This document shows, in pieces, positions 4,886 through 49,943 of a stretch of 64,000 nt of DNA. The position numbers and the translations under genes were made by a program. How positions within the stretch are numbered: position 1 is the stretch's first letter; each line of letters starts with the position of its first letter. Source of the stretch: Oscillospiraceae bacterium (lineage in GTDB: Bacteria > Bacillota > Clostridia > Oscillospirales > Oscillospiraceae). The notes under the pieces were generated by a model that made no database searches, had not been told where the DNA came from, and saw only the letters and a program-made list of their open reading frames with translations. The stretch is from contig JAGBBD010000029.1 in NCBI GenBank assembly GCA_017938625.1, positions 70 to 64,069 of the forward strand. The letters run 5' to 3'.

Positions 4886-6061
4886 TCAGCTGAGGAAGTC
4901 CCTCAGCTTTTTGCTTCTGCTGGGGTGGCGCAGCTTCCGCAGCGCCTTGGATTCGATCTGGCGGATGCGCTCTCTTGTCACATCAAACTCTTTGCCCACC
5001 TCTTCCAGCGTGTGTGCCTTGCCGTCGGTCAGACCGAAGCGCATACGCAGCACCTGTTCTTCTCTGGGTGCCAGGGTGGCGAGAACCTCCTCCAGTTGTT
5101 CACGCAGCAGAGTGTAGGAGGCGGCTTCTGCAGGCTGAGAGGCTTCTTCGTCCTGAATGAAATCGCCGAGGTGGCTGTCTTCCTCCTCACCGATGGGGGT
5201 CTCCAGAGAAACAGGCTCCTGTGCGATCTTCAGGATCTCTTCCACCTTGCTCAGCTCCATACCCATCTTGGCGGACAGTTCCTGAGGGGAAGGATCGCGT
5301 CCCAGCTCCTGCACCATGGAATGGGCGGTGCGGATCACGCGGTTGATGGTCTCCACCATATGGACGGGGATGCGGATGGTGCGTGCCTGATCGGCGATGG
5401 CTCTGGTGATGGCTTGACGGATCCACCAGGTGGCATAGGTGGAGAACTTGTAGCCCTTGGTATAGTCAAACTTTTCCACAGCCTTGAGCAGACCCAGATT
5501 GCCTTCCTGGATCAGATCCAGCAGCTGCATACCTCTGTTCATATAGCGCTTTGCAATGGATACCACAAGGCGCAGATTGGCTTCTGTCATTTTCTGACGG
5601 GCTTTTTTATCGCCCTCCACCATCTTCTGTGCCAGCTCCTGCTCCTGTTCCTGTGTCAGCAGGGGAATCTTGCCAATCTCTCTGAGATACATACGTACAG
5701 GGTCGTCTGTGCGAAGCATCTCGTCTGCCGTTGCTTCGGCAGAACCGCTCAGATCGGACTGCACATCCTGTTCCAGCGATTGCAGTTCTGCATCGGAGGG
5801 CAGATCCTCGGGCTGCTCATTGGGATCGGGAGTGAAAAGCTCCATCACATCAGTCACATCGATCTCGATGCTCAAATCATCCAGAAGGTCATAAAACTGG
5901 TCGGTCTGACCATCCGTCGCGTTGACGGTTTCCAACGTCTCGACCAACTGCTTGGAGGATACCTTACCTGCCTTCTTGCCTTCTGTCAGAAGGTCGGTAA
6001 GCTTCTTTCTGTTGTCTTCATTCAAGTTCCATTGCGCCAGCTTATTCAATGCTTTTTCCAT
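4886..6061 (-). CDS. rpoD: Primary RNA polymerase sigma factor (sigma-70/SigA)
   Basis: Acidic region 1, region 2 [13 protein letters not shown], region 4.2 [20 protein letters not shown]. Located immediately downstream of dnaG. Confidence 0.97.
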
Positions 6062-11253: not shown

Positions 11254-11759
11254 CAATATTCACTTTTTTAAGATGTTCTTATCGAACAGATGATTTCTTT
11301 ACGAACTTCTATGTAAATGCTCTCAAACGGTGAGCCACAACCGATCCATTATAAACTTGCATTCATTTCCGAATTACATTTATATCAACGGATCACGCAT
11401 CCGATTCGTGGGAAGATGCTTGTTTCAGATCAGCGCATTGGACTCATTCCTTTCGGTGTAGTGCGGTTCGGTATTCGACGTGTACATCGGAATCAGTCCT
11501 TTCTGTAAGTAAATTCGGATTTCTTTCTTGAGAAGTTTCTTTTGTTTCTCCTCTTTGACCACATTTTACAGGAAAGAATGTATTCTGTAAATTCGCAAAA
11601 TGTATGAAAACAAAGGGAATTTTTTTACTAACACCTTTGTAAAGATCTGTGGTACAATGATTGTGTTGGGGCGTTTTCTACCGTTGACTTTCTTAAATTA
11701 AAGTGATATAGTAATGGGGCTTGGAAACAAGCTCCATTTTGTTTTAAAGAGGGATTTAT

Positions 11760-32359: not shown

Positions 32360-32471
32360 CTTTTCGGCAGGCAGTTTTAGCTGGCAACATTTGGATTTTT
32401 TAATTATGTAGTTGCGTAAAGTGTGGGATGTATGATATGATAAACAATAATCCTTGCTTTTGGAGGAATAT

Positions 32472-34871
32472 ATGGTGAAAAAAGAAATGATCCTGGAAAA
32501 TTTGCAGCAGGTTTGCGGCAGATTGTTTGGCTGCACTCTGGAAGAGGCAACGGAAAAGCAGGCATATAAAACGGTCTGTACCTACGTCCGTGAGAGTCTT
32601 GCGCAGAAGCGCCGTGATTTCCAGAAGGAGATTCGCGAGCAGGAGCGCAAGCAGGTCTACTATATGTCCATGGAGTTCCTTGTGGGCACCTCTTTGCGCA
32701 ATAATCTTTATAATCTTGGCATCCTTGACGATGTGACCAAGGTGCTCAAGAAGCTTGGCTTCTCTGTGGAGCGCCTGTGCGCTCTGGAGCCGGATGCCGG
32801 TCTCGGCAATGGCGGCCTTGGCAGACTGGCTTCCTGCTATATGGACAGCCTGACCGGCTGTGAGTATCCTGCCACCGGCTTCTCCATCCGCTATGAGTTT
32901 GGCATTTTCCGCCAGAAGATCGTAGACGGCTGGCAGGTGGAATTCCCCGATGACTGGCTGGAAATGGGCGATGTATGGCTCAAGACCAGAGAGGACGATG
33001 CTGTGGAGATCCGCCTTGGCGGTGAGAGCCGTGAGTGGCTGGATAACGGCAAGTTCCGGGTTGCCCATGTGGGCTACCAGTCTGTTATGGCAGTGCCCCA
33101 TGATCTTTATATTTCCGGCTACGGTACCGACAAGGTCAACAAGCTGACCCTGTGGAGCGCCGAGCAGCCCCATGGCTTTGATATGGCTGCCTTCTCCCGC
33201 GGTGACTATGTCCGTGCGCTGGAGCATGACACCATGGCACAGACCATCTCCAAGGTTCTGTACCCTGCCGACGATCATATCAGCGGCAAGCGTCTGCGTC
33301 TGCAGCAGCAGTATCTGCTGGTCTCTGCGTCCCTGCAGGCTATTCTGAAAGAGCACTTCAAACGCTACCGTACCTACCGCAATCTGGCGGATAAGGTCGC
33401 CATCCATATTAACGATACCCATCCTGCTCTGTGTGTGCCGGAGCTGATGCGTCTTCTCATGGACGAAAATGACTACGGCTGGGACGAGGCTTGGGAGATC
33501 ACCTGCAAGACCCTGTCCTATACCAACCATACCGTCATGTCCGAGGCGCTGGAACGCTGGGATGTGGGACTGTTCCGGGAGCAGCTGCCGAGAATCTATG
33601 CCATTACGGCAGAGATCAACCGCCGTCTGATCAACGATCTGATGGAAGCCTATCCCGGTGACTGGGGCAAGCTCAACTATATGGCAGTCATCGGTGACAA
33701 CCAGGTGCGTATGGCAAATCTGTGTCTTGCCTGCTGCCATACGGTCAATGGCGTCAGCCAGCTCCACAGCCAGATTCTCAAAGACGGTATTTTCCATGAT
33801 TATTATGTGCTGGACAATGACCGCTTCACCAACGTGACCAACGGCATCGCTTATCGCCGTTGGCTGTGCCAGTCCAATCCCGGACTGACAGCCTTCCTGC
33901 GCAAGCTCATTGGCGACGGTTTCCTGCGTGATGCAAGAGAACTGGAAAAGCTTTTGGCTTACCGTGATGACGCTGCCGTGCTGGAAACTCTGCAGAAGAT
34001 CAAGCGCGAAAATAAAGAGCGCCTTGCCAAGTATATTGCCGAAAAGAACGGCGTCCATGTCAGTCCCGACAGCGTGTTTGATATCCAGATCAAGCGTCTG
34101 CACGAGTACAAGCGTCAGCTGCTCAATGTGCTGCACATTCTGCATCTTTACAATACCATCAAGGATTCTCCCAATGCGCCCTTTACGCCCCGTACCTTTA
34201 TTTTTGGTGCCAAGGCATCGGCAGGCTATATCCGTGCCAAGCAGATCATCAGTCTGATCGTGGCAGTTTCCAATCTGGTCAACTCCGATCCACAGGTGCG
34301 CAGCAAGCTGAAGGTGGTCTTCCTGGAGGACTACAAGGTCTCCCGTGCTGAGATCATCATCCCTGCGGCAGATATCTCCGAACAGATCTCCATTGCCGGC
34401 AAGGAAGCCTCCGGCACCGGCAATATGAAGCTGATGATCAACGGTGCTGTGACTCTCGGTACTCTTGATGGCGCCAATGTGGAGATCCACCAGCAGGTGG
34501 GCGATGAGAATATGTTCCTCTTCGGCATGAAGGCTCACGAGGTGGAAGCGCTCTGGCAGCGCGGCTACGATCCCAGAGAGTTCCTGACCCCCGAGCTGGA
34601 GCGTGTTCTGCAGATGCTGACCTCCGGTGTTCTCGGTCAGCGCTACGATGACATTGTGGCAAGCCTTCTGACCAACCGCTTTGGCACGGCAGACGGCTTC
34701 ATGACCGTGGCGGATTTTGCCGACTATGCAAGAGCGCAGCGTGATATTTCCGCTGCCTATCTTGATCGCTCTGCCTTTACCGCCATGTCCTTGACCAACA
34801 TTGCCAAGGCAGGAATCTTCTCTGCCGACCGTGCAGTGGAGGAATACGCCGAAAGAATTTGGAAGTTGTAA
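32472..34871 (+). CDS. glgP: Glycogen/maltodextrin phosphorylase (GT35, 799 aa)
   Basis: PLP-lysine motif EASGTGNMKLMINGA and the N-terminal YYMSMEFLVG. The ATG at 32472 follows GGAGG. Confidence 0.95.
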   Translation: MVKKEMILENLQQVCGRLFGCTLEEATEKQAYKTVCTYVRESLAQKRRDFQKEIREQERKQVYYMSMEFLVGTSLRNNLYNLGILDDVTKVLKKLGFSVERLCALEPDAGLGNGGLGRLASCYMDSLTGCEYPATGFSIRYEFGIFRQKIVDGWQVEFPDDWLEMGDVWLKTREDDAVEIRLGGESREWLDNGKFRVAHVGYQSVMAVPHDLYISGYGTDKVNKLTLWSAEQPHGFDMAAFSRGDYVRALEHDTMAQTISKVLYPADDHISGKRLRLQQQYLLVSASLQAILKEHFKRYRTYRNLADKVAIHINDTHPALCVPELMRLLMDENDYGWDEAWEITCKTLSYTNHTVMSEALERWDVGLFREQLPRIYAITAEINRRLINDLMEAYPGDWGKLNYMAVIGDNQVRMANLCLACCHTVNGVSQLHSQILKDGIFHDYYVLDNDRFTNVTNGIAYRRWLCQSNPGLTAFLRKLIGDGFLRDARELEKLLAYRDDAAVLETLQKIKRENKERLAKYIAEKNGVHVSPDSVFDIQIKRLHEYKRQLLNVLHILHLYNTIKDSPNAPFTPRTFIFGAKASAGYIRAKQIISLIVAVSNLVNSDPQVRSKLKVVFLEDYKVSRAEIIIPAADISEQISIAGKEASGTGNMKLMINGAVTLGTLDGANVEIHQQVGDENMFLFGMKAHEVEALWQRGYDPREFLTPELERVLQMLTSGVLGQRYDDIVASLLTNRFGTADGFMTVADFADYARAQRDISAAYLDRSAFTAMSLTNIAKAGIFSADRAVEEYAERIWKL

Positions 34872-34872
34872 T

Positions 34873-36603
34873 ATGGCACTGAGAATTTTATATAACAGCC
34901 TGGATCCTGCCTACAAATCGCCCTTTGGCACTTTGACTCCCGGACAGAGCTGCACCATGACTCTCGCCATTCCGTGTTCCTGTCTGACCACGGAAGTTGC
35001 TCTTGTGCTGCAGTGGGAAAACGGCAGCTTCTTCCGGGAAGAAGCCTTCACCCTTGATCGTGTGGAAGAGCCCTATGAGTATTACACAGCAACATTCTCC
35101 TTTGATGAGCCGGGGCTGTTCTTCTACTATTTCCGTATCTGTACCCAGAATGAGCGTTTCCGCCTGTTCCGTCAGGGCACGGATACCAACATGGAGGCGG
35201 GAGATCTCTGGCAGCTCAGCTGCGTGACAGATTCCCTGCCTGTGCCGGAGGAGTTTCAGGGAAGAGTGTTCTATCAGATCTTCCCGGATCGCTTCCACCG
35301 TGCAGGTACTTGTGACTGCAGCGAAAAGCTCACGCCCTATTGGGTGCATGAAGATCTGACCGAGATGCCGGTCTACCTCCCCGATGAAAACGGTGAGGTG
35401 CTCAACAATGACTTTTACGGCGGCAATCTCAACGGTATCCGGGAAAAACTGCCGTATCTGCACGAGCTTGGTGTGAGAGCAATCTATCTCAATCCTATTT
35501 TCAAGGCTTTTTCCACCCATCGCTATGACACGGCGGATTACAGCCGGATCGATCCAATGCTTGGCACAGATGAAGATTTTGCCGCTTTGTGCGAAGCGGC
35601 CCACAAGCTGGATATGAAGATCATCTTGGACGGTGTGTTCTCTCATACTGGCTCTCAGAGCGTGTATTTTCAGCATGCCATCTCCGATGAGAGATCTTTG
35701 TACCGCAAGTGGTATCAGTTCAAAAACTATCCCACGGACTATGTGAGCTGGTGGGGCTTCAAGACGCTGCCCACCATCGACAAGTCCTCGGAATCATTTA
35801 TGGACTATATCTTCGGCTCTGATGACAGCGTCATTGCCAAATGGCTTCGCCTTGGAGCAGATGGTTTGCGTCTGGATGTGGTGGACGAACTGCCCGACGA
35901 TTTCCTGATGAAGCTGCGCCTGCGTCTGCGGGAGCTGAATCCAAAGGCTTTCCTCATCGGTGAGGTCTGGGAGGATGCATCCAACAAGGTCGCCTACGGT
36001 GTCCGCCGCCGCTATTTCACCCATGGTCAGCTGGATAGTGTTATGAACTATCCCTGGCGCACGGCGATCTTGAGATTCTGTCGCGGCGAGGATGATGGCA
36101 ACGGCTTGAGATGGGCGATCATGAACTTGGCGGAGAATTATCCTGCCGCCGTGCTCAATTCCAACCTGAATTTGCTGTCTTCTCACGATGTGCCCAGAGC
36201 CATCACGGATCTGATCGACCCTGTTAACGGCGAGCGTGAAGAGCTGGCAGCCAGAGTCATGACCGAAGAGCAGCTGAAGCTTGGAAAAGAGCGTTTTAAG
36301 CTGGCATCCTTCCTGCAGTTCACTCTGCCGGGCTGCCCCTGTGTGTACTACGGCGATGAAGCCGGTATGACCGGCTACAGAGATCCCTTTAACCGCCGGT
36401 ATTATATCTGGGGGGAAGAGGATGAACAGCTGCAGGCCCATATTCGTGAGCTTGCCCATATGAAGCAGAATGATATTCTGCGCTTTGGAACTGTGGAGGT
36501 TCTGGAAGCTGGCGAGGGCAAGATCACCTACCGCCGTACTTACGGTGGAAAGTCCCTTGTCTGCGCCTGCGATGCGGAAAAACTCACATTCTCTATTACT
36601 TGA
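34873..36603 (+). CDS. GH13 alpha-amylase-family enzyme (neopullulanase/cyclomaltodextrinase-like, 576 aa)
   Basis: DGVFSHTG, GLRLDVVDEL, IGEVWED and LSSHDVPR catalytic-region motifs. An N-terminal beta-domain is present. The start is 2 nt after the glgP stop. Confidence 0.88.
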   Translation: MALRILYNSLDPAYKSPFGTLTPGQSCTMTLAIPCSCLTTEVALVLQWENGSFFREEAFTLDRVEEPYEYYTATFSFDEPGLFFYYFRICTQNERFRLFRQGTDTNMEAGDLWQLSCVTDSLPVPEEFQGRVFYQIFPDRFHRAGTCDCSEKLTPYWVHEDLTEMPVYLPDENGEVLNNDFYGGNLNGIREKLPYLHELGVRAIYLNPIFKAFSTHRYDTADYSRIDPMLGTDEDFAALCEAAHKLDMKIILDGVFSHTGSQSVYFQHAISDERSLYRKWYQFKNYPTDYVSWWGFKTLPTIDKSSESFMDYIFGSDDSVIAKWLRLGADGLRLDVVDELPDDFLMKLRLRLRELNPKAFLIGEVWEDASNKVAYGVRRRYFTHGQLDSVMNYPWRTAILRFCRGEDDGNGLRWAIMNLAENYPAAVLNSNLNLLSSHDVPRAITDLIDPVNGEREELAARVMTEEQLKLGKERFKLASFLQFTLPGCPCVYYGDEAGMTGYRDPFNRRYYIWGEEDEQLQAHIRELAHMKQNDILRFGTVEVLEAGEGKITYRRTYGGKSLVCACDAEKLTFSIT

Positions 36604-36631
36604 AAAAAGAGAGCGAAAGCTCTCTTTTTTT
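36604..36631 (+). terminator. Rho-independent terminator
   Basis: AAAAAAGAGAGC-GAAA-GCTCTCTTTTTTT. Confidence 0.85.
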
Positions 36632-36658
36632 GGTTATGCTAATGGGGAGGTGAAAGCA

Positions 36659-37717
36659 ATGAAACAACGAGCGCTGCAATTAAAAGAGGAAACCATCCGG
36701 CACAGACGGTATATCCACGAATGTGCCGAAGTGGGACTGAAGCTTCCCAAAACCATGGCATATATCAAAGAAGAACTCAAAATATGCGGTATTGAGCCCA
36801 AACTGTGCGGCAATGGCATTTGCGCCGAGATCGGCAGGGGAGAGCCGGTACTGCTGCTGCGTGCCGATGCCGATGCTCTGCCCAACGGACACACCTGCGG
36901 TCACGATTGTCACGCAGCCATGCTTCTGACGGCAGCAAAGCTTTTAAAGGAAGACGAGCAAAAACTGCATGGCACCGTGCGGCTCATGTTCCAACCGGCG
37001 GAAGAAACGCTGGAAGGGGCAAAAAATATGATCGATCATGGCATCCTTGCGCCCACGCCGCAGGCAGCTCTTGCCTTCCATACGGCAGCCGGAAAGCTGC
37101 GTCCCGGTATGGCGCTGTATGGCAGCGGCATTATGATGCGCTCTGCTGATTGTGTTACGATCACCTTTCGCGGCAAAGGCGGTCACGGTGCTTACGCGGA
37201 TCGAACCTGTGATCCGATCAAAATGGCGGTGGAGGCATACCAAGCTTTGCCGGAGTTTAGTTTTGGCGTCTTCCATGCCGGAGAAACGGGGAATGTGATC
37301 CCGGATACTGCGGTGCTCAAGGGCTCTGTGCGCACAGAGCGGGGCAGAGAAAAAATGCTGGATAAGCTGGAACGTGTGGTACACCAAGCAGCCAAACGTT
37401 ACGGTGGCAGTGTTGAGATCAACCACACAGCAGGTGCGCCTGCTCTGGAGTGCGATCAAAAGCTGACAGTATTCTTTGCCGGATGCTTAAAGGAACTGAA
37501 CTTGATCGTGAAGGACGGTGTCAGAGCAAAAGCGTCTGAGGATTTTGCCTATATTGCCCGGGAAATTCCGTCTGCTTATTTCTATCTGACCTGCGGCTTT
37601 TCCGATGGCAGAGGGGCTCATCTTGCCCATGATCCTCTGGTGCAGATCGATGAGGATGTTTTGCCGATCGGCGCAGCGGCCTATGCCCATTGTGCCCAGC
37701 GGTATCTAAAAAAATAA
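36659..37717 (+). CDS. M20-family amidohydrolase (N-acyl-amino-acid amidohydrolase-like, 352 aa)
   Basis: RRYIHE.AE, LRADADALP, GH.CGHD.H and FQPAEE motifs. The ATG at 36659 follows GGAGGTG. The longer track ORF crosses a terminator. Confidence 0.8.
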   Translation: MKQRALQLKEETIRHRRYIHECAEVGLKLPKTMAYIKEELKICGIEPKLCGNGICAEIGRGEPVLLLRADADALPNGHTCGHDCHAAMLLTAAKLLKEDEQKLHGTVRLMFQPAEETLEGAKNMIDHGILAPTPQAALAFHTAAGKLRPGMALYGSGIMMRSADCVTITFRGKGGHGAYADRTCDPIKMAVEAYQALPEFSFGVFHAGETGNVIPDTAVLKGSVRTERGREKMLDKLERVVHQAAKRYGGSVEINHTAGAPALECDQKLTVFFAGCLKELNLIVKDGVRAKASEDFAYIAREIPSAYFYLTCGFSDGRGAHLAHDPLVQIDEDVLPIGAAAYAHCAQRYLKK

Positions 37718-39244: not shown

Positions 39245-40467
39245 TTTTTATGCGTTATTTTGTGCATTTTAGAGCATGACGAATAGGCCACCAGCCCGGG
39301 CCGTCTGGTAGCCTTTCCACTTTATCCCCCAATTTTTGCACAATTATATATTAAATGTGGACAACTGGCGCGGAAACACCCGCCGTTTCTGCCCATTCGG
39401 CCAGCGCTGTGTTTGCGCAGACGCCGCCTAAAATCCCTCTCGGGTAGTTGTTCATCCAGTTTTCGATTTCTTTTACCTGTTTGGCGGTCACTTCTGCCAG
39501 GTTGGTCCCCTTCGGAAGCCACCGGCGGATAAGGATGTTTGCGTTCTCGTTGCTGCCTCGCTCAAAGGCGCTGTACGGATGACAGTAATATACGTGTGTC
39601 CGCTTCTGCTTTGTCAGGCACGACCGCTCTATGCCCTCGCAGTCCGCGAACTCGCTACCGTTGTCCACAGTTATCGTGTGGAAGATGCTGCGGAACAGCC
39701 GGGACCCCAGTTTTCTTTCCAGCCGGTCCAGCGCTTTGACCGTGCTCGCCATGGTGCCATCCGGCATCTTTATGATGACCTCCCGCCGGAACTTCCGCTC
39801 CGTCAGAACTAACAGCCTGTGCAAATCTCCCTTGCAGCTCTCCACCGTGTCCATCTCCCAGTCACCGAAGAACTCCCGCTGCGCGATCTCCTGCGGGCGG
39901 TCCTCAATGCTGTCGCCCTTGGGCAGCCGGGCGGCGCGCACCTTCCGATACGCTTTGTTCTTCTTGGCCTTCCGGGGCAAGTTCTTATTTGTGATGCCCA
40001 GGAAAACGCCCTTTGTGATGTAGGAGTACAGCGTCCACTTGGAGATCGTCACGGAGAAGGTCAGCCCCTCCTCCTTGATCTTATACAGAACCGCCTCCGG
40101 GGAATACTTCTCGTTTACGATCTTGTCCTCGATGTACGCGGCCAGCGCGTAGTCGCTGCCCAGTTTCAGGGCCGGACCCTTTGCCGCGAGGTTAGCCTGG
40201 TATTTGTTCTCGGCCACATCCGGGCAATACACTTCTCTGTCGATCAGGTCCGTTGTGCGCTGGATAGCCGCGCCCCGCTTCAACTCCCGGTAGATGGTGG
40301 TGCTGTGTACGTGTAGGGCAGCCGCAATTTCCTTGGGCTTCTTTCCCTCTTTCAGCATCTTCTCAATTTTCAATCGGTCTTTCCACTTGAGATGGGAAAA
40401 GCGCCGTCCTTTTTCGCTGCTCATGGTTGGTATCCTCCTTTTGTGTGGGGATAATAACCCATAAAAA
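39245..40467 (-). mobile_element. IS30-family insertion sequence (boundaries tentative, ~1.22 kb)
   Basis: Single transposase ORF. The only terminal inverted repeat I could find is TTTTTATGCGTTATT (39245-59) against AATAACCCATAAAAA (40453-67), 14/15 complementary. No clear target duplication was seen. Confidence 0.55.
39351..40424 (-). CDS. IS30-family DDE transposase (357 aa)
   Basis: N-terminal HTH (HLKWKDRLKIEKMLKEGKKPKEIAAALHVHSTTIYRELKRG). The catalytic core has GDWEMDTV, ITVDNGSEF and the YYCHPYSAFERGSNEN region typical of IS30. Confidence 0.92.
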   Translation of the reverse strand: MSSEKGRRFSHLKWKDRLKIEKMLKEGKKPKEIAAALHVHSTTIYRELKRGAAIQRTTDLIDREVYCPDVAENKYQANLAAKGPALKLGSDYALAAYIEDKIVNEKYSPEAVLYKIKEEGLTFSVTISKWTLYSYITKGVFLGITNKNLPRKAKKNKAYRKVRAARLPKGDSIEDRPQEIAQREFFGDWEMDTVESCKGDLHRLLVLTERKFRREVIIKMPDGTMASTVKALDRLERKLGSRLFRSIFHTITVDNGSEFADCEGIERSCLTKQKRTHVYYCHPYSAFERGSNENANILIRRWLPKGTNLAEVTAKQVKEIENWMNNYPRGILGGVCANTALAEWAETAGVSAPVVHI

Positions 40468-47018: not shown

Positions 47019-47328
47019 TCATGGTGCCTCCAATGCAGTATCCCACCCGTACAGCGTTCGGCCCGACAGGTGGTTTGCGGGCTGCATAAGTTCCCGCACC
47101 TGATCTGTCTGCCGCAACGGTTTTCTGATAGCTGCATAACGGCTGCTCATGTAACTGGGGCACTCCCGTCAAAATCCCCAGCCATGCAAGAAGCGTCCGG
47201 GCTTCCGTATCGGGTGGCTATTTTAGGAATGAAGCCCGCATACACGGGCCAGTCTCCAAGGGTCAAGTTCTCCTTTAAGGGGTGGGGCGCGGCTTCACAT
47301 TTCGTTACTTGTCTGGCCCCAGTGTGTT

Positions 47329-47456
47329 CTTAAATCCCGGCGCGAAGCCATTCGAATTGTAGGCGTTGTTGTTGTTCGCACTGCCGTCCGTGTTCACATT
47401 GCAGAAGTTGTTCGTGTTGGTCGCATTCACGGAGCGGAGCCACCAGTTGCAGGCGT
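47329..47456 (-). repeat. DGR template repeat (TR), non-coding
   Basis: 128 nt align without gaps to 48120..48247 (offset 791). It is adenine-rich on the sense strand, with runs of AAC, and starts 27 nt after the avd stop. Confidence 0.92.
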
Positions 47457-47482
47457 GGCCGTCAGAACTTGCCCTAATGAAA

Positions 47483-47950
47483 TTACTGTGTTTTGCCCTG
47501 CCGGGCCTTCTGGTATCCCGCCCAGCGGCGCTTGTCGCTGTCCAGGATGCCCCGCAGGCGGGACAGGGCCGTATTTGCCAGCGTCGTCCAGGTCTGGAAC
47601 GTCCGCTCATACTCCTCCTTGTTCTTGAAGAAGTTGTTTCCGTCGTCCACCAGCTCATAGCAAAAGGTGATCTCACCCAGTAGCGCGTCCGCGTTGGCCG
47701 CCGCGATCATCAGATATCGGCGGCGCAGATCGTACTCCTGCGCGCTCATGTCCTTGTGTACGTAGATGCCGTTCCCTTTGAGCGAGTTTGTGTAGATTTC
47801 ACCCGCCATTTCCAGCAGCTTGTTCGTCGTCACATAACGGTAGCTCGCCGGGAACTTTCGCACGATACGCACCGTGGCCTTCCGCAGCTCCCGCGCATCC
47901 GCCACAAACTGCGCTACGGCGTCCTTCCTGCGGGATTTATATACTGCCAT
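47483..47950 (-). CDS. avd: Accessory variability determinant (Avd-like four-helix-bundle protein, 155 aa)
   Basis: Helical basic protein with KFPASYRY...LEMAGEIYTNSLKGN, which resembles the four-helix-bundle/Avd family. It occupies the canonical position between the VR and TR. Confidence 0.8.
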   Translation of the reverse strand: MAVYKSRRKDAVAQFVADARELRKATVRIVRKFPASYRYVTTNKLLEMAGEIYTNSLKGNGIYVHKDMSAQEYDLRRRYLMIAAANADALLGEITFCYELVDDGNNFFKNKEEYERTFQTWTTLANTALSRLRGILDSDKRRWAGYQKARQGKTQ

Positions 47951-48062
47951 GTTGGTTTCTCCCTTCTGTCATGCAGCCCGTCGCCCGGACGGGGCCACAA
48001 AAGCGGTCCCGCCCGGGGTGGTGCTGGTTGCTGTTTTGATACCTGGTTGCAGGCGTTTCGCC

Positions 48063-48082
48063 GCAGGGACTTGCGTCCCCGC
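48063..48082 (-). other. GC-rich hairpin just downstream of the VR (candidate DGR target-recognition hairpin/cruciform)
   Basis: The sense strand reads GCGGGGAC-GCAA-GTCCCTGC, an 8-bp stem (one G-T wobble) with a GNRA-type tetraloop. It lies 28 nt after the target stop codon. Confidence 0.6.
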
Positions 48083-48110
48083 AGCTTCACTTACGATGCC
48101 GGATTTAAGA

Positions 48111-49943
48111 TTAGGCCACCTTAAAGCCCGGCGCGAAGCCAGCCGAATGGTAGGCGCTGCGGTAGCTCGCACCGCCGTCCGTGCTCACACGGCAGAAGTA
48201 GTCCGTGCCGGTCGCACGCACGGAGCGGAGCCACCAGTAGCAGGCGGTCGTAGTCGCGTTGTGCTTATACTTGACCTTGCTGTTACCGTTCTTGTAGTAA
48301 TCATACTGCTTCTGGTAATTCTGCTCGGCACTGTTGGCGTAGCTTCTGGTGCCCTGTACCTCGAACTCGGACAGCAGCCAAATCTTGTCGGATGTGGTGG
48401 TCACGTAGCTGGCGGTGTTGGAGCCGCCGCCGGTGTTGTCGCTGTACTTGGTGCAGGCCGCGATCACGTTCTGCCATGCGGTAGGCATAGCAGCCAGGAA
48501 GGCGGGGCAGATGGTCTTGCGCATATAGCTGCCGTTCCAGCCGCCGGAGTTGCTGTTGCTGGTGTTCATACGGAAGCCTGCGGAGCTGCCAGTGTTGCCG
48601 TAGTTGCCGTCCACGAAAGCGATGTCCACGCCCGCGCTGGTCTTGCCGAACTGGAAGTGGATGCTGTTGCCGCCCTCCACGCTGCTGTTGTGGTTAAAGC
48701 CCAGGATGAAGGCGTAGTAGGTGCCGCTCAAAGACAGCGCGCCCACGGTGCCGGACAGGGCAATTCCCATCTTGTCGCCCACAGACCAGTAGTTTGCCGC
48801 CTGGCCGGACTGTGCTGCCGCCTGAATGGTGGCAGGAGTGTTGTCCGCAAGGGACGAGCTGGGCACGCTGACACTGACAGCGATGGTCTTGTTTGCGGGC
48901 GCGGTGTGGTTGGTGCCAGCCGCCACCTTCACGGTGATGGTGGCGTCACCGGCGGCCAGGCCAGTGATGACCACGTTGTTGCCGCTCACTTCCGCCTTTG
49001 CCACACTGGTGTTGCTGGACGTTGCGCTGATCGCGCCGTCGCCCGCGCGGGTTACCGCCACGGTCTCCGACAGAGTGGAGATGTCCAGGCTCACACTGGT
49101 CTTGCCCAGGGTCAGACTACCGGCGGCCTTGCCGATGGACCAGCTCACAGTCTTGGCCGTGGTGGTGCCGTCGTTCCACTGATAGTTCGCCTTGGGGGTA
49201 AAGGTGGCGTTGTAGCTACCGGCATTGGTGCCGGAGGTAGTTCCGCCGATGGTCAGCTTATTGCTGTCATAGTTGCTCCACTGGGGAGACTGGGCGCTGC
49301 CGGAATAGGTCAGGCTCCCGCTCTGCGCAGGGGTAGCCAGACTGGCCTTGCCGATGGTCCAGGTCACGCTCTTGGCCGTGGTGGTGCCGTCGGCCCACTC
49401 ATAGCCACTCTTGGGTGTGAAGGTGGCGGTATAGCTACCGGCATTGGTGCCGGAGGTAGTTCCGCCGATGGTCAGTCGCTCCTCGTCATAGCCGTTCCAC
49501 TGGGGAGACTGGGCGCTGCCCGTGTACGTCAGGCTCCCGCTCTGCGTGGGCACACTGTTGATGACGCTGTTGATCTTGGTAATGGCGTCCAAAGCGTCGT
49601 TGGCCGCCTGCTGGGCGTTCTGTGCTGCCGTGGCCGCGTCCTCCGCTGCCTGCTTGGCGGCGGCTGCGTTTTCCTCTGCGGCAGTGGCCGCGTCGGTGGC
49701 AGTCTTAACAGAGCCTTCCAGGCTGTTCGCCTTTTCCAGGGCCTCGTTGGCCTTGCCGTTGGCGTCGCCTGCGGTGCTCTCGGCATCAGCGGCCTTCTGC
49801 ATCGCTGCGTTTGCCGTGTTGCCTGCGCTGTTTGCAGCGTTCAGAGCGGCGTCCGCCTGCTCTTTGGCCTGCTGCGCCACCTGTCTTGCGATGGTAGCGT
49901 CTACCCCAGCAGCGCCAGGGGTATTAACTTGTCCTAAAGCCAT
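48111..49943 (-). CDS. DGR target: tail-fibre/receptor-binding-like protein with a C-terminal variable C-type-lectin-like domain (610 aa)
   Basis: Ala/Gln-rich coiled-coil N-terminus, two 73-aa tandem repeats, an Ig-like (Big_2-like) segment, and a C-terminal domain ending in YWWLRS...FAPGFKVA that contains the VR. Confidence 0.85.
   Translation of the reverse strand: MALGQVNTPGAAGVDATIARQVAQQAKEQADAALNAANSAGNTANAAMQKAADAESTAGDANGKANEALEKANSLEGSVKTATDAATAAEENAAAAKQAAEDAATAAQNAQQAANDALDAITKINSVINSVPTQSGSLTYTGSAQSPQWNGYDEERLTIGGTTSGTNAGSYTATFTPKSGYEWADGTTTAKSVTWTIGKASLATPAQSGSLTYSGSAQSPQWSNYDSNKLTIGGTTSGTNAGSYNATFTPKANYQWNDGTTTAKTVSWSIGKAAGSLTLGKTSVSLDISTLSETVAVTRAGDGAISATSSNTSVAKAEVSGNNVVITGLAAGDATITVKVAAGTNHTAPANKTIAVSVSVPSSSLADNTPATIQAAAQSGQAANYWSVGDKMGIALSGTVGALSLSGTYYAFILGFNHNSSVEGGNSIHFQFGKTSAGVDIAFVDGNYGNTGSSAGFRMNTSNSNSGGWNGSYMRKTICPAFLAAMPTAWQNVIAACTKYSDNTGGGSNTASYVTTTSDKIWLLSEFEVQGTRSYANSAEQNYQKQYDYYKNGNSKVKYKHNATTTACYWWLRSVRATGTDYFCRVSTDGGASYRSAYHSAGFAPGFKVA
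48120..48247 (-). repeat. DGR variable repeat (VR) at the 3' end of the target gene
   Basis: Differs from the TR at 21 of 128 positions, every one an A in the sense-strand TR. The invariant GC-rich 3' segment GGCTTCGCGCCGGG is shared (IMH-like). Confidence 0.92.
49113..49550 (-). repeat. In-frame 219-bp tandem duplication inside the DGR target gene
   Basis: P(T/A)QSGSLTY(T/S)GSAQSPQW...TIGGTTSGTNAGSY.ATFTPK...DGTTTAK.V.W.IGKA occurs twice (aa 132-204 and 205-277). Confidence 0.85.

Follow-up and report, generated by a model that had tools for sequence, protein, structure and literature searches.

The locus raises the question of how two related 128-nt repeats came to lie 791 nt apart in the 64,000-nt stretch of Oscillospiraceae DNA analysed here (the window), and whether the differences between them record adenine-specific mutagenic homing. 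A base-by-base comparison aligned the template repeat (TR) and the variable repeat (VR) without gaps at this fixed offset, with 21 mismatches (TR positions 47335, 47351, 47352, 47358, 47366, 47369, 47370, 47373, 47375, 47382, 47393, 47399, 47400, 47409, 47412, 47417, 47418, 47426, 47427, 47448 and 47456). At all 21 the TR carries T on the plus strand (A on the minus, coding strand) and the VR carries G, C or A; 58% (21/36) of the plus-strand T residues of the TR are changed, and the hypergeometric probability that 21 of 21 mismatches fall on 36 T among 128 positions is ~9e-15. A sequence-only reading of the same DNA had reported 21 mismatches at this offset, all at template adenines, and these were reproduced exactly with identical positions, as were its estimates of about 36 sense-strand adenines and 58% changed; its amino-acid strings match the computed translations (TR, ACNWWLRSVNATNTNNFCNVNTDGSANNNNAYNSNGFAPGFK; VR, ACYWWLRSVRATGTDYFCRVSTDGGASYRSAYHSAGFAPGFK). 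It had put the altered residues at about 15, and we counted 14 within the in-frame block plus a partial first codon. The exact alignment and the test of mismatch against base identity that it had proposed are those given above, and the block contains neither non-adenine mismatches nor indels.

The similarity ends sharply beyond the two copies, and a separate repeat search returned the identical pair. A whole-window search for a remote second VR, using an adenine-degenerate TR and allowing ≤6 substitutions per half, recovered the known pair only. The VR forms codons 567-608 of its gene, and the TR is non-coding and lies in the intergenic region between avd and the reverse transcriptase (RT) gene. 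We do not take the open reading frame that crosses the TR (47305-47676) for a gene, since it lies over avd in another frame and owes its openness solely to the origin of the TR in coding sequence. The repeats are almost certainly the TR and VR of a diversity-generating retroelement (DGR) that is complete and phage-borne, and no observation speaks against this reading. DGRs are a well-known kind of system and the copy in the window is an ordinary, well-preserved one, so that its main value is as the annotation of a textbook DGR.

Features of the candidate DGR cassette (window coordinates)
Feature	Coordinates	Strand	Description
DGR reverse transcriptase, 416 aa	45768..47018	-	RVT_1, Brt homology
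RT-2 spacer RNA (RF03077)	47073..47322	-	Full-length Rfam match
Template repeat (TR)	47329..47456	-	36 adenines, 13 AAY codons
Putative IMH*, TR 3' end	47329..47350	-	GGCTTCGCGCCGGG then ATTTAAG; A at 47335 fixed relative to VR
Avd-like accessory gene, 155 aa	47483..47950	-	Assigned by fold, size and position between VR and TR
GC-rich hairpin/cruciform, GCAA tetraloop	48060..48085	-	Begins 34 nt past VR end
DGR target gene, 610 aa	48111..49943	-	ORF; C-terminal DUF6273 domain ending in VR
Variable repeat (VR)	48120..48247	-	42 codons at target-gene 3' end; mutagenised part ~48142-48247
Putative IMH, VR 3' end	48120..48141	-	GGCTTCGCGCCGGG then CTTTAAG; C at 48126 fixed relative to TR

On the minus strand the cassette runs from the target gene with its 3' VR through the hairpin, the avd-like gene, the TR and the RT-2 RNA to the RT gene, and it lies between the tail-fibre and lysis genes of a myovirus-like Oscillospiraceae prophage. 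A scan for sigma-70 promoters around the cassette found no sites. Megablast against GenBank phages, run with the cassette and with 20 kb of the prophage, returned short patches of 72-81% only, and because of this we regard the phage as one not yet described.

Related prophages were used to compare VRs, as the sequence-only reading had suggested, and the VR proved hypervariable and the TR constant. Ten prophages that come from other samples and encode an identical Avd protein had diverged by 14.7% in the VR, 0.31% in the TR and 2.49% elsewhere; near-identical prophages had 0-2 TR differences, and their VRs differed at 18-24 positions. Across the eight distinct VRs found on exactly this TR, 33 of the 36 adenines vary, together with 1 non-adenine position. 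The anatomy of the cassette, its adenine specificity and, across natural relatives, a hypervariable VR beside a constant TR are direct observations. Two other loci have changed in ways less usual than anything in the window cassette: one (L109) has lost the TR and RT by deletion, and in another (L020) the TR is corrupted, apparently by mutagenesis.

This population-level sequence comparison indicates that mutagenic homing was active in the past of this lineage, and homing appears to have continued within it because prophages 2-3% diverged share the TR and carry completely different VRs. The earlier statement that the element has been active in adenine-specific mutagenic homing accordingly stands for the lineage (VR 14.7% against TR 0.31%); for this particular copy it is carried over from the population, and the closest relative, L095, which differs at 5 of 8468 nt (0.06%), has an identical VR. 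That shared VR, which amounts to no diversification on the shortest available time scale, is also what one would expect if the DGR had formerly been active and were now a fossil in this prophage, its A-only differences historical and its cassette no longer homing, and decay of the kind seen in L109 (TR and RT gone) and L020 (TR corrupted) is known to occur in relatives. We consider a fossil improbable: L095 may be the same strain, the window retains an intact YMDD RT, the Avd-like ORF, a TR with all 36 adenines, a full-length RT-2 match and the hairpin, and the same TR accompanies completely different VRs at only 2-3% prophage divergence.

An origin by ordinary diverged duplication, or by a recombination hotspot in tail-fibre genes, would involve no reverse transcription. 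Repeats and mosaic ends are indeed frequent in tail-fibre genes, and the target gene itself also contains an unrelated 219-nt tandem duplication, but neither point mutation nor recombination can confine all 21 differences to a single base of a single copy. The pattern recurs, moreover, in 39 independent related TR/VR pairs, in which 677 of 1368 adenine sites differ against 10 of 3624 other sites, and the unchanged copy is non-coding and adjoins an RT gene; we give this origin next to no credence. The natural series is well sampled (eight distinct VRs on one TR, and 39 pairs in total) and could be used for mapping variation-tolerant positions.

The RT matched Pfam RVT_1 (E 8e-11) and phrog_1423 (E 2e-71), and aligned over nearly its full length to BPP-1 Brt (24% identity, E 4e-17), with LGSEVSQ on IGSLTSQ and YMDD on YMDD; DGR-clade RTs carry [I/L/V]GxxxSQ and YxDD motifs. 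Its best solved relative is 8ub7, the alignment to which matches that to BPP-1 Brt; a literature search with the PDB code 8UB7 found nothing. That this RT comes from a different class of retroelement (a retron, a group II intron or a defence RT), with the repeats only incidental to it, is hardly credible: the NCBIfam matches that might suggest it, to models of group II intron RTs, retron RTs and Drt3a, are sub-threshold and far under curated cut-offs (59.6 vs 300 bits, etc.), whereas 8ub7 aligns like Brt, intron RNA domains are absent, the RNA beside the gene is RT-2 and not a retron msr/msd, and the TR/VR logic is specific to DGRs.

The gap between TR and RT is filled exactly by a match to Rfam RT-2 (cmscan 77.9 bits against a gathering score of 40, E 5e-17, model positions 1-222 of 222), and all 11 of the related loci tested have the match in the same position (12/12 with the window). 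In the original description the RT motifs were merely noted near RT genes and RT-10 alone was tied to DGRs (Weinberg et al. 2017, PMC5737381), and our literature search found no link of either RT-2 or RT-10 to DGR spacers. Unlike that account, in which RT-2 lies near RT genes only, the window RNA, with its full-length match above the gathering score, occupies the TR-RT spacer. Its placement suggests that in this clade RT-2 serves as the spacer RNA of the DGR, in the position that the DGR RNA takes in BPP-1, and by analogy it is presumably the portion of the RNA that binds RT and Avd and takes part in priming. Placing this orphan motif in the spacer would be a modest gain in knowledge of DGR cis elements beyond BPP-1.

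One of the 21 mismatches requires a separate explanation. The sequence-only reading had taken all of them as adenine mutagenesis, and this holds at the other sites; 47335 (TR position 122; GGGATTTAAG in TR, GGGCTTTAAG in VR) is a fixed, family-wide TR/VR difference and no outcome of random mutagenesis, because across related loci all 40 VRs have C there and 39 of 40 TRs have A. With this site counted as fixed, ~20 of 33 mutable adenines are changed. A 14-nt GC-rich block precedes the fixed C (VR) or A (TR), and adenines 3' of it are invariant, those at TR positions 126 and 127 staying A in related VRs; a lone G-to-T change at position 120 was seen in one relative (L096). The A/C difference is probably the marker that separates IMH from IMH*, with the IMH role modelled on BPP-1 (PMC3240598). 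A single fixed base separating the two elements in a whole family would again add modestly to what is known of DGR cis elements outside BPP-1.

The hairpin downstream of the VR folds with z = -2.8 and has a stem of 9-11 bp. Thirteen distinct relatives have it in the same position, with 95.7% of cells paired and compensatory changes at 4 of 9 pairs. Hairpins of phage DGRs have been described as a 7-10 bp GC-rich stem with a 4-nt GRNA loop, 4-34 bp from the VR (PMC3240598). The window element fits this description save for its GNAA-type loop, GCAA, which is unlike strict GRNA; most relatives have GAAA, and the GRNA consensus is found only in relatives. Its role would, by analogy, be that of the phage DGR hairpins.

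The target gene directly follows the tail-fibre genes. Its product begins with an Ala-rich, coiled-coil-like N-terminal stretch followed by two 73-aa tandem repeats, and matched Pfam DUF6273 (E 1.4e-16, residues 460-608) and phrog_37900 (E 1e-195). An AF2 model of the last 230 aa (pLDDT 95.9) was searched with Foldseek, and the sole strong PDB match was a DUF6273-containing IgA peptidase (9qa6), matches to lectins being weak and partial. Comparison with Mtd by hhalign gave no similarity, and a profile of the target domain searched against PDB sequences returned nothing. For this domain a C-type lectin fold, on which DGR variable proteins of the Mtd/TvpA type display the VR, is no more than a possibility. 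DUF6273 has been described as a target domain of DGRs in gut phages (PMC11792537, PMC10743442), and by analogy the 610-aa protein is likely an adaptive binding protein of an uncultured Oscillospiraceae prophage.

The mechanism that we propose takes its RNA and cDNA steps, the roles of the IMH and hairpin, and receptor binding from BPP-1. An RNA containing the TR and the structured spacer would be bound by a complex of the RT and the Avd-like protein, and would be reverse-transcribed with random misincorporation opposite template adenines. The resulting cDNA would replace the VR, and the GC-rich IMH that closes the VR at its 3' end (the TR having the fixed A at 47335), together with the downstream hairpin, would keep transfer one-way. 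With 13 AAY codons and 6 single-A codons, the TR allows ~8e18 possible protein variants, and no stop codon is reachable by mutating its adenines. Variants would fall in the C-terminal, putatively ligand-binding DUF6273 domain of a tail-fibre-associated protein, presumably affecting receptor binding, and would retune binding of the phage to Oscillospiraceae hosts or in the gut environment.

We compared the cassette with the prototype, the BPP-1 DGR (mtd-avd-TR-brt). The two share the order of tail fibre, target, avd, TR, RT and lysis genes; a VR that makes up the final ~130 nt of the target gene; TR/VR differences at A only; an RT homologous over its full length, with aligned [I/L]GxxxSQ and YMDD motifs; a repeat whose 3' end has a GC-rich block with TR/VR differences after it; and a GC-rich hairpin with a 4-nt loop after the VR (PMC3240598). 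Unlike BPP-1, the window has a DUF6273 target without sequence similarity to Mtd, an Avd-like protein of 155 aa (bAvd, 128 aa; sequences unrelated), RT-2 as spacer RNA at the place equivalent to that of RF03022 Phage_DGR in BPP-1, a TR-RT gap of ~310 nt, putative IMH and IMH* elements that differ at just one in-repeat position, a hairpin at 34 nt from the VR with a GCAA loop, and a Gram-positive gut anaerobe as host. The second comparison set was the DUF6273 DGRs of Faecalibacterium and gut phages (Roos, Pioen, Lelie, CP11; nd4/nd12 'tentaclin' phages), which likewise place the VR at the C-terminal end of a DUF6273 target (PMC11792537, PMC10743442), have gut Clostridia as hosts, carry myovirus-like tail modules and show a hypervariable VR (in their case in cognate IMG/VR genomes). 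The window differs from them in its Oscillospiraceae host, its single VR, nucleotide similarity limited to short patches, and an RT just 32-37% identical to those of Roos, Taranis, nd12 and the Roseburia phage Shimadzu.

The accessory protein of a DGR is either Avd, which forms a pentameric four-helix bundle, or an HRDC protein. The Avd-like protein was predicted by AF2 to be a four-helix bundle (pLDDT 90.5), for which the top Foldseek PDB matches were 2gsc and 2rld (TM up to 0.84) and the BFVD matches include several proteins annotated 'Avd-like protein'. It had no match in Pfam or NCBIfam and no sequence similarity to bAvd (hhalign probability 0.35%), and phmmer and profile searches against PDB gave noise only. 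The fold comparison, the one informative search, points with size and position to an Avd-like identity.

In a sister clade (L003-L012; RT 88% identical), avd contains a 24-nt core, GACGCGCTGCTGGGCGAGATCACC, common to a bacterial DUF3842 gene. Two junction contigs read DUF3842'-'avd-TR (L104) and target/VR-avd'-'DUF3842 (L105), and lysogeny there therefore appears to split avd and to part the VR from the TR and RT. The view that all Avd chimeras mark integration was rejected: P0079 comes from an intact cassette where the gene was simply called shorter, P0112 is an internal deletion, and junctions are confined to the DUF3842 chimeras. We suggest tentatively, as a possibility that we rate below even chances, that avd doubles as the phage attachment site in this family, the DGR being reassembled only on excision. 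If true, diversification would be confined to replicating phage, and such coupling of diversification to the phage life cycle, if confirmed, would be of real interest. The avd of the window keeps the core with 2 mismatches (47666-47689), and the gene is intact in this lysogen.

The template repeat (TR) was compared base by base with the variable repeat (VR) at an offset of 791 nt, which gave 21 mismatches and no indels, in exact agreement with the coordinates of the sequence-only reading, whose translations of both repeats were also correct. At all 21 mismatches the lower copy (the TR) has T on the plus strand and, because the cassette genes lie on the minus strand, these T are template adenines. 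The 128-nt TR contains 36 of them, as had been estimated. The statistical check of mismatch against base identity proposed in that reading gave a probability of 9e-15 that all 21 differences would land on the 36 T if placed at random over 128 positions. Homology stops sharply at both edges of the two copies; an independent repeat search of the window recovered the identical pair, and a window-wide search with the TR found no further VR. Read from TR to VR on the minus strand, 11 of the substitutions are A to G, 7 are A to C and 3 are A to T, with changes confined to codon positions 1 or 2 except for a silent change at position 122. By computation, the mutable codons of the TR (13 AAY and 6 with a single A) can reach about 8e18 proteins and never a stop codon.

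Of 40 TRs, 39 have A at position 122 (47335; GGGATTTAAG), and all 40 VRs have C at the base opposite it (48126); the adenines at positions 126 and 127 are unchanged in every related VR. The mutagenised tract therefore excludes the last 22 nt, which resemble in their behaviour IMH and IMH*, the 3' markers of VR and TR in the prototype diversity-generating retroelement (DGR) of Bordetella phage BPP-1. In this DGR family the two are told apart by one fixed base and by divergent flanks. The earlier count of 21 differences, all at A, stands, but with position 122 a fixed difference the mutagenesis tally falls to about 20 of the 33 mutable adenines.

Relatives of the reverse transcriptase (RT) were found in IMG/VR (79) and in GTDB genomes (10), the latter mainly Oscillospiraceae MAGs together with Flintibacter muris; the G+C content of the window (56%) is consistent with such Oscillospiraceae-type relatives. 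Across 39 distinct TR/VR pairs, the VR differs at 677 of 1368 TR adenines and at 10 of 3624 other positions. The sharpest test of homing was restricted to contigs encoding exactly the window's Avd-like protein, which comprised ten prophages; divergence from these was 14.7% in the VR, 0.31% in the TR and 2.49% over the remaining 73 kb aligned. Eight distinct VRs on an identical TR vary at 33 of the 36 adenine positions and at only one non-adenine position, which supplies the comparison across related prophages that the first reading had called for. A scrambled VR beside a constant TR indicates that the element has been homing in this lineage, and the earlier claim that it has been active holds to that extent. 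The VR of the window recurs unchanged in the one nearly identical relative (L095, which differs at 5 positions in 8468 nt), so for this particular copy we infer activity rather than see it.

Features of the DGR cassette and its neighbourhood (window coordinates)
Feature	Coordinates or length	Strand	Remarks
Tail-collar and tail-fibre genes	52522-51560, 51459-50437, 50372-49947	minus	
Target gene, 610 aa	49943-48111	minus	Pfam DUF6273 match (E 1.4e-16) over the C-terminal 150 residues
VR	48247-48120	minus	last 42 codons of target gene
VR hairpin (inverted repeat)	48060-48085	minus	GCTGCGGGGAC GCAA GTCCCTGCGGC; begins 34 nt past VR
Avd-like ORF, 155 aa	47950-47483	minus	
TR	47456-47329	minus	
Repeat 3' end, last 22 nt			14-nt GC-rich block + CTTTAAG or ATTTAAG
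TR-RT gap	310 nt		
Spacer RNA, Rfam RT-2 (RF03077)	47073-47322	minus	full-length match, 77.9 bits (gathering score 40)
RT, 416 aa	47018-45768	minus	RVT_1; phrog_1423, E 2e-71
Small ORFs, then endolysin	43771-42248 (endolysin)	minus	downstream of RT

The best explanation of the TR/VR pair is the standard DGR cycle, in which a complex of RT and Avd-like protein would bind the TR-spacer RNA, the RT would make adenine-mutagenised cDNA, and this cDNA would replace the VR. IMH and hairpin would guide this one-way transfer, and the outcome would be a diversified binding surface on a fibre-associated protein. Anatomy and population pattern are observed here directly; for the biochemical steps and for the ligand, the account is presumed by analogy with BPP-1.

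The BPP-1 cassette has the same gene order, and there too a fibre gene lies upstream and lysis genes lie downstream. BPP-1 Brt aligns to the window RT over nearly its full length (24% identity, E 4e-17), with IGSLTSQ against LGSEVSQ and YMDD against YMDD, and the best match of the RT among solved structures is the 8ub7 series, whose 328-aa sequence is the same as the BPP-1 Brt aligned. Models for group II intron, retron and DRT enzymes scored well under their cut-offs. The 155-aa protein is without a Pfam or NCBIfam match and has no detectable sequence similarity to bAvd of BPP-1. AlphaFold, supplied with 47 homologues, models it confidently as a bundle of four helices (pLDDT 90.5) with best PDB matches to 2gsc and 2rld (TM up to 0.84 on target), which are bundles of the 23S-rRNA-IVS-protein type, relatives of Avd; several of its best viral structural matches are annotated Avd-like. 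From predicted fold, size and position we call it Avd-like. In the target gene a 219-nt (73-aa) segment upstream of DUF6273 is tandemly duplicated (49125-49546; repeat families D1 and D3; 88-89% identity); the duplication encodes two ...GSLTY(T/S)GSAQSPQW... modules and is unrelated to the TR/VR pair.

The RT-2 match begins 7 nt past the TR, occupies the TR-RT gap and recurs at the equivalent position in 11 of 11 related DGR loci scanned, whereas BPP-1 has another family (RF03022, Phage_DGR) there. Of the RT motifs, Weinberg et al. linked RT-10 alone to a DGR, and they speculated that others have a role in such elements (PMC5737381). Judged by position, RT-2 clearly has one here, and DGR spacer RNA is a suitable annotation for this orphan Rfam family.

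The VR hairpin is kept in place in 13 distinct relatives, with 95.7% of cells paired, compensatory changes in 4 of 9 pairs, covariation unmatched by any shuffle and a loop of GCAA or GAAA. It fits the hairpin/cruciform that Guo et al. showed to be required for BPP-1 homing and to be present in other phage DGRs, which has a GC-rich stem of 7-10 bp and a loop of 4 nt and lies 4-34 bp from the VR (PMC3240598). G-T wobble pairs are common on the coding strand, suggesting that this is the strand on which the structure is important. Between the VR hairpin and the start of avd there is a second strong GC-rich hairpin (47983-48014, minus strand; GGGCGGGACCGC TTTT GTGGCCCCGTCCGGGC), which is not followed by a T-run and is not kept in more distant relatives, where avd starts sooner.

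In about 35 protein clusters, DUF3842 is fused in frame to one half of the Avd-like protein. Contig L104 reads bacterial genes, DUF3842', 'avd, TR (5174-5933) and contig L105 reads target/VR, avd', 'DUF3842 (1-1108). Their phage parts are 97-99% identical to the sister clade L003-L012, whose avd is intact, and overlap by a 24-nt core (GACGCGCTGCTGGGCGAGATCACC, coding ADALLGEIT) that is present both inside the avd of that clade and in the bacterial DUF3842 gene. These junctions and the common core suggest that the attP core through which the clade integrates lies within avd, so that lysogeny would divide the DGR cassette. In the window the core is retained with 2 mismatches (47666-47689), and avd is intact.

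Contigs L020 and L021 differ at 17 of 8273 positions; 15 of these differences, all A-to-G/C, lie in the L020 TR (5523-5650), and the VRs are identical. Either the L020 TR was itself adenine-mutagenised, the cDNA having homed into the TR despite IMH*, or the contig is an assembly chimera in which VR-variant reads were mis-assembled into the TR. In contig L109 (8001-8729) a deletion fuses the 5' portion of avd with the endolysin's LysM end, taking out TR, spacer RNA, RT and small ORFs and leaving the target gene with a frozen VR.

The phage is not a described one: the closest RTs from GenBank phages share 32-39% identity with the window RT, and no extended nucleotide similarity to GenBank phages was found. 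The DGR itself is a known kind of system. Homology to phage contigs ends near 39.2 kb, probably the left end of the prophage, with bacterial genes upstream (M20 peptidase, 36470-37717; glycogen phosphorylase, 32454-34871). Beside this point lies an IS30-like transposase gene (39351-40424, minus strand; HTH_38 and rve; phrog_4646, E 2e-128); related phage contigs conserve it at their end. The related contig L030 carries a match to the type II hammerhead ribozyme (RF02276, 49.7 bits; 11393-11461, minus strand) about 4 kb downstream of its RT.
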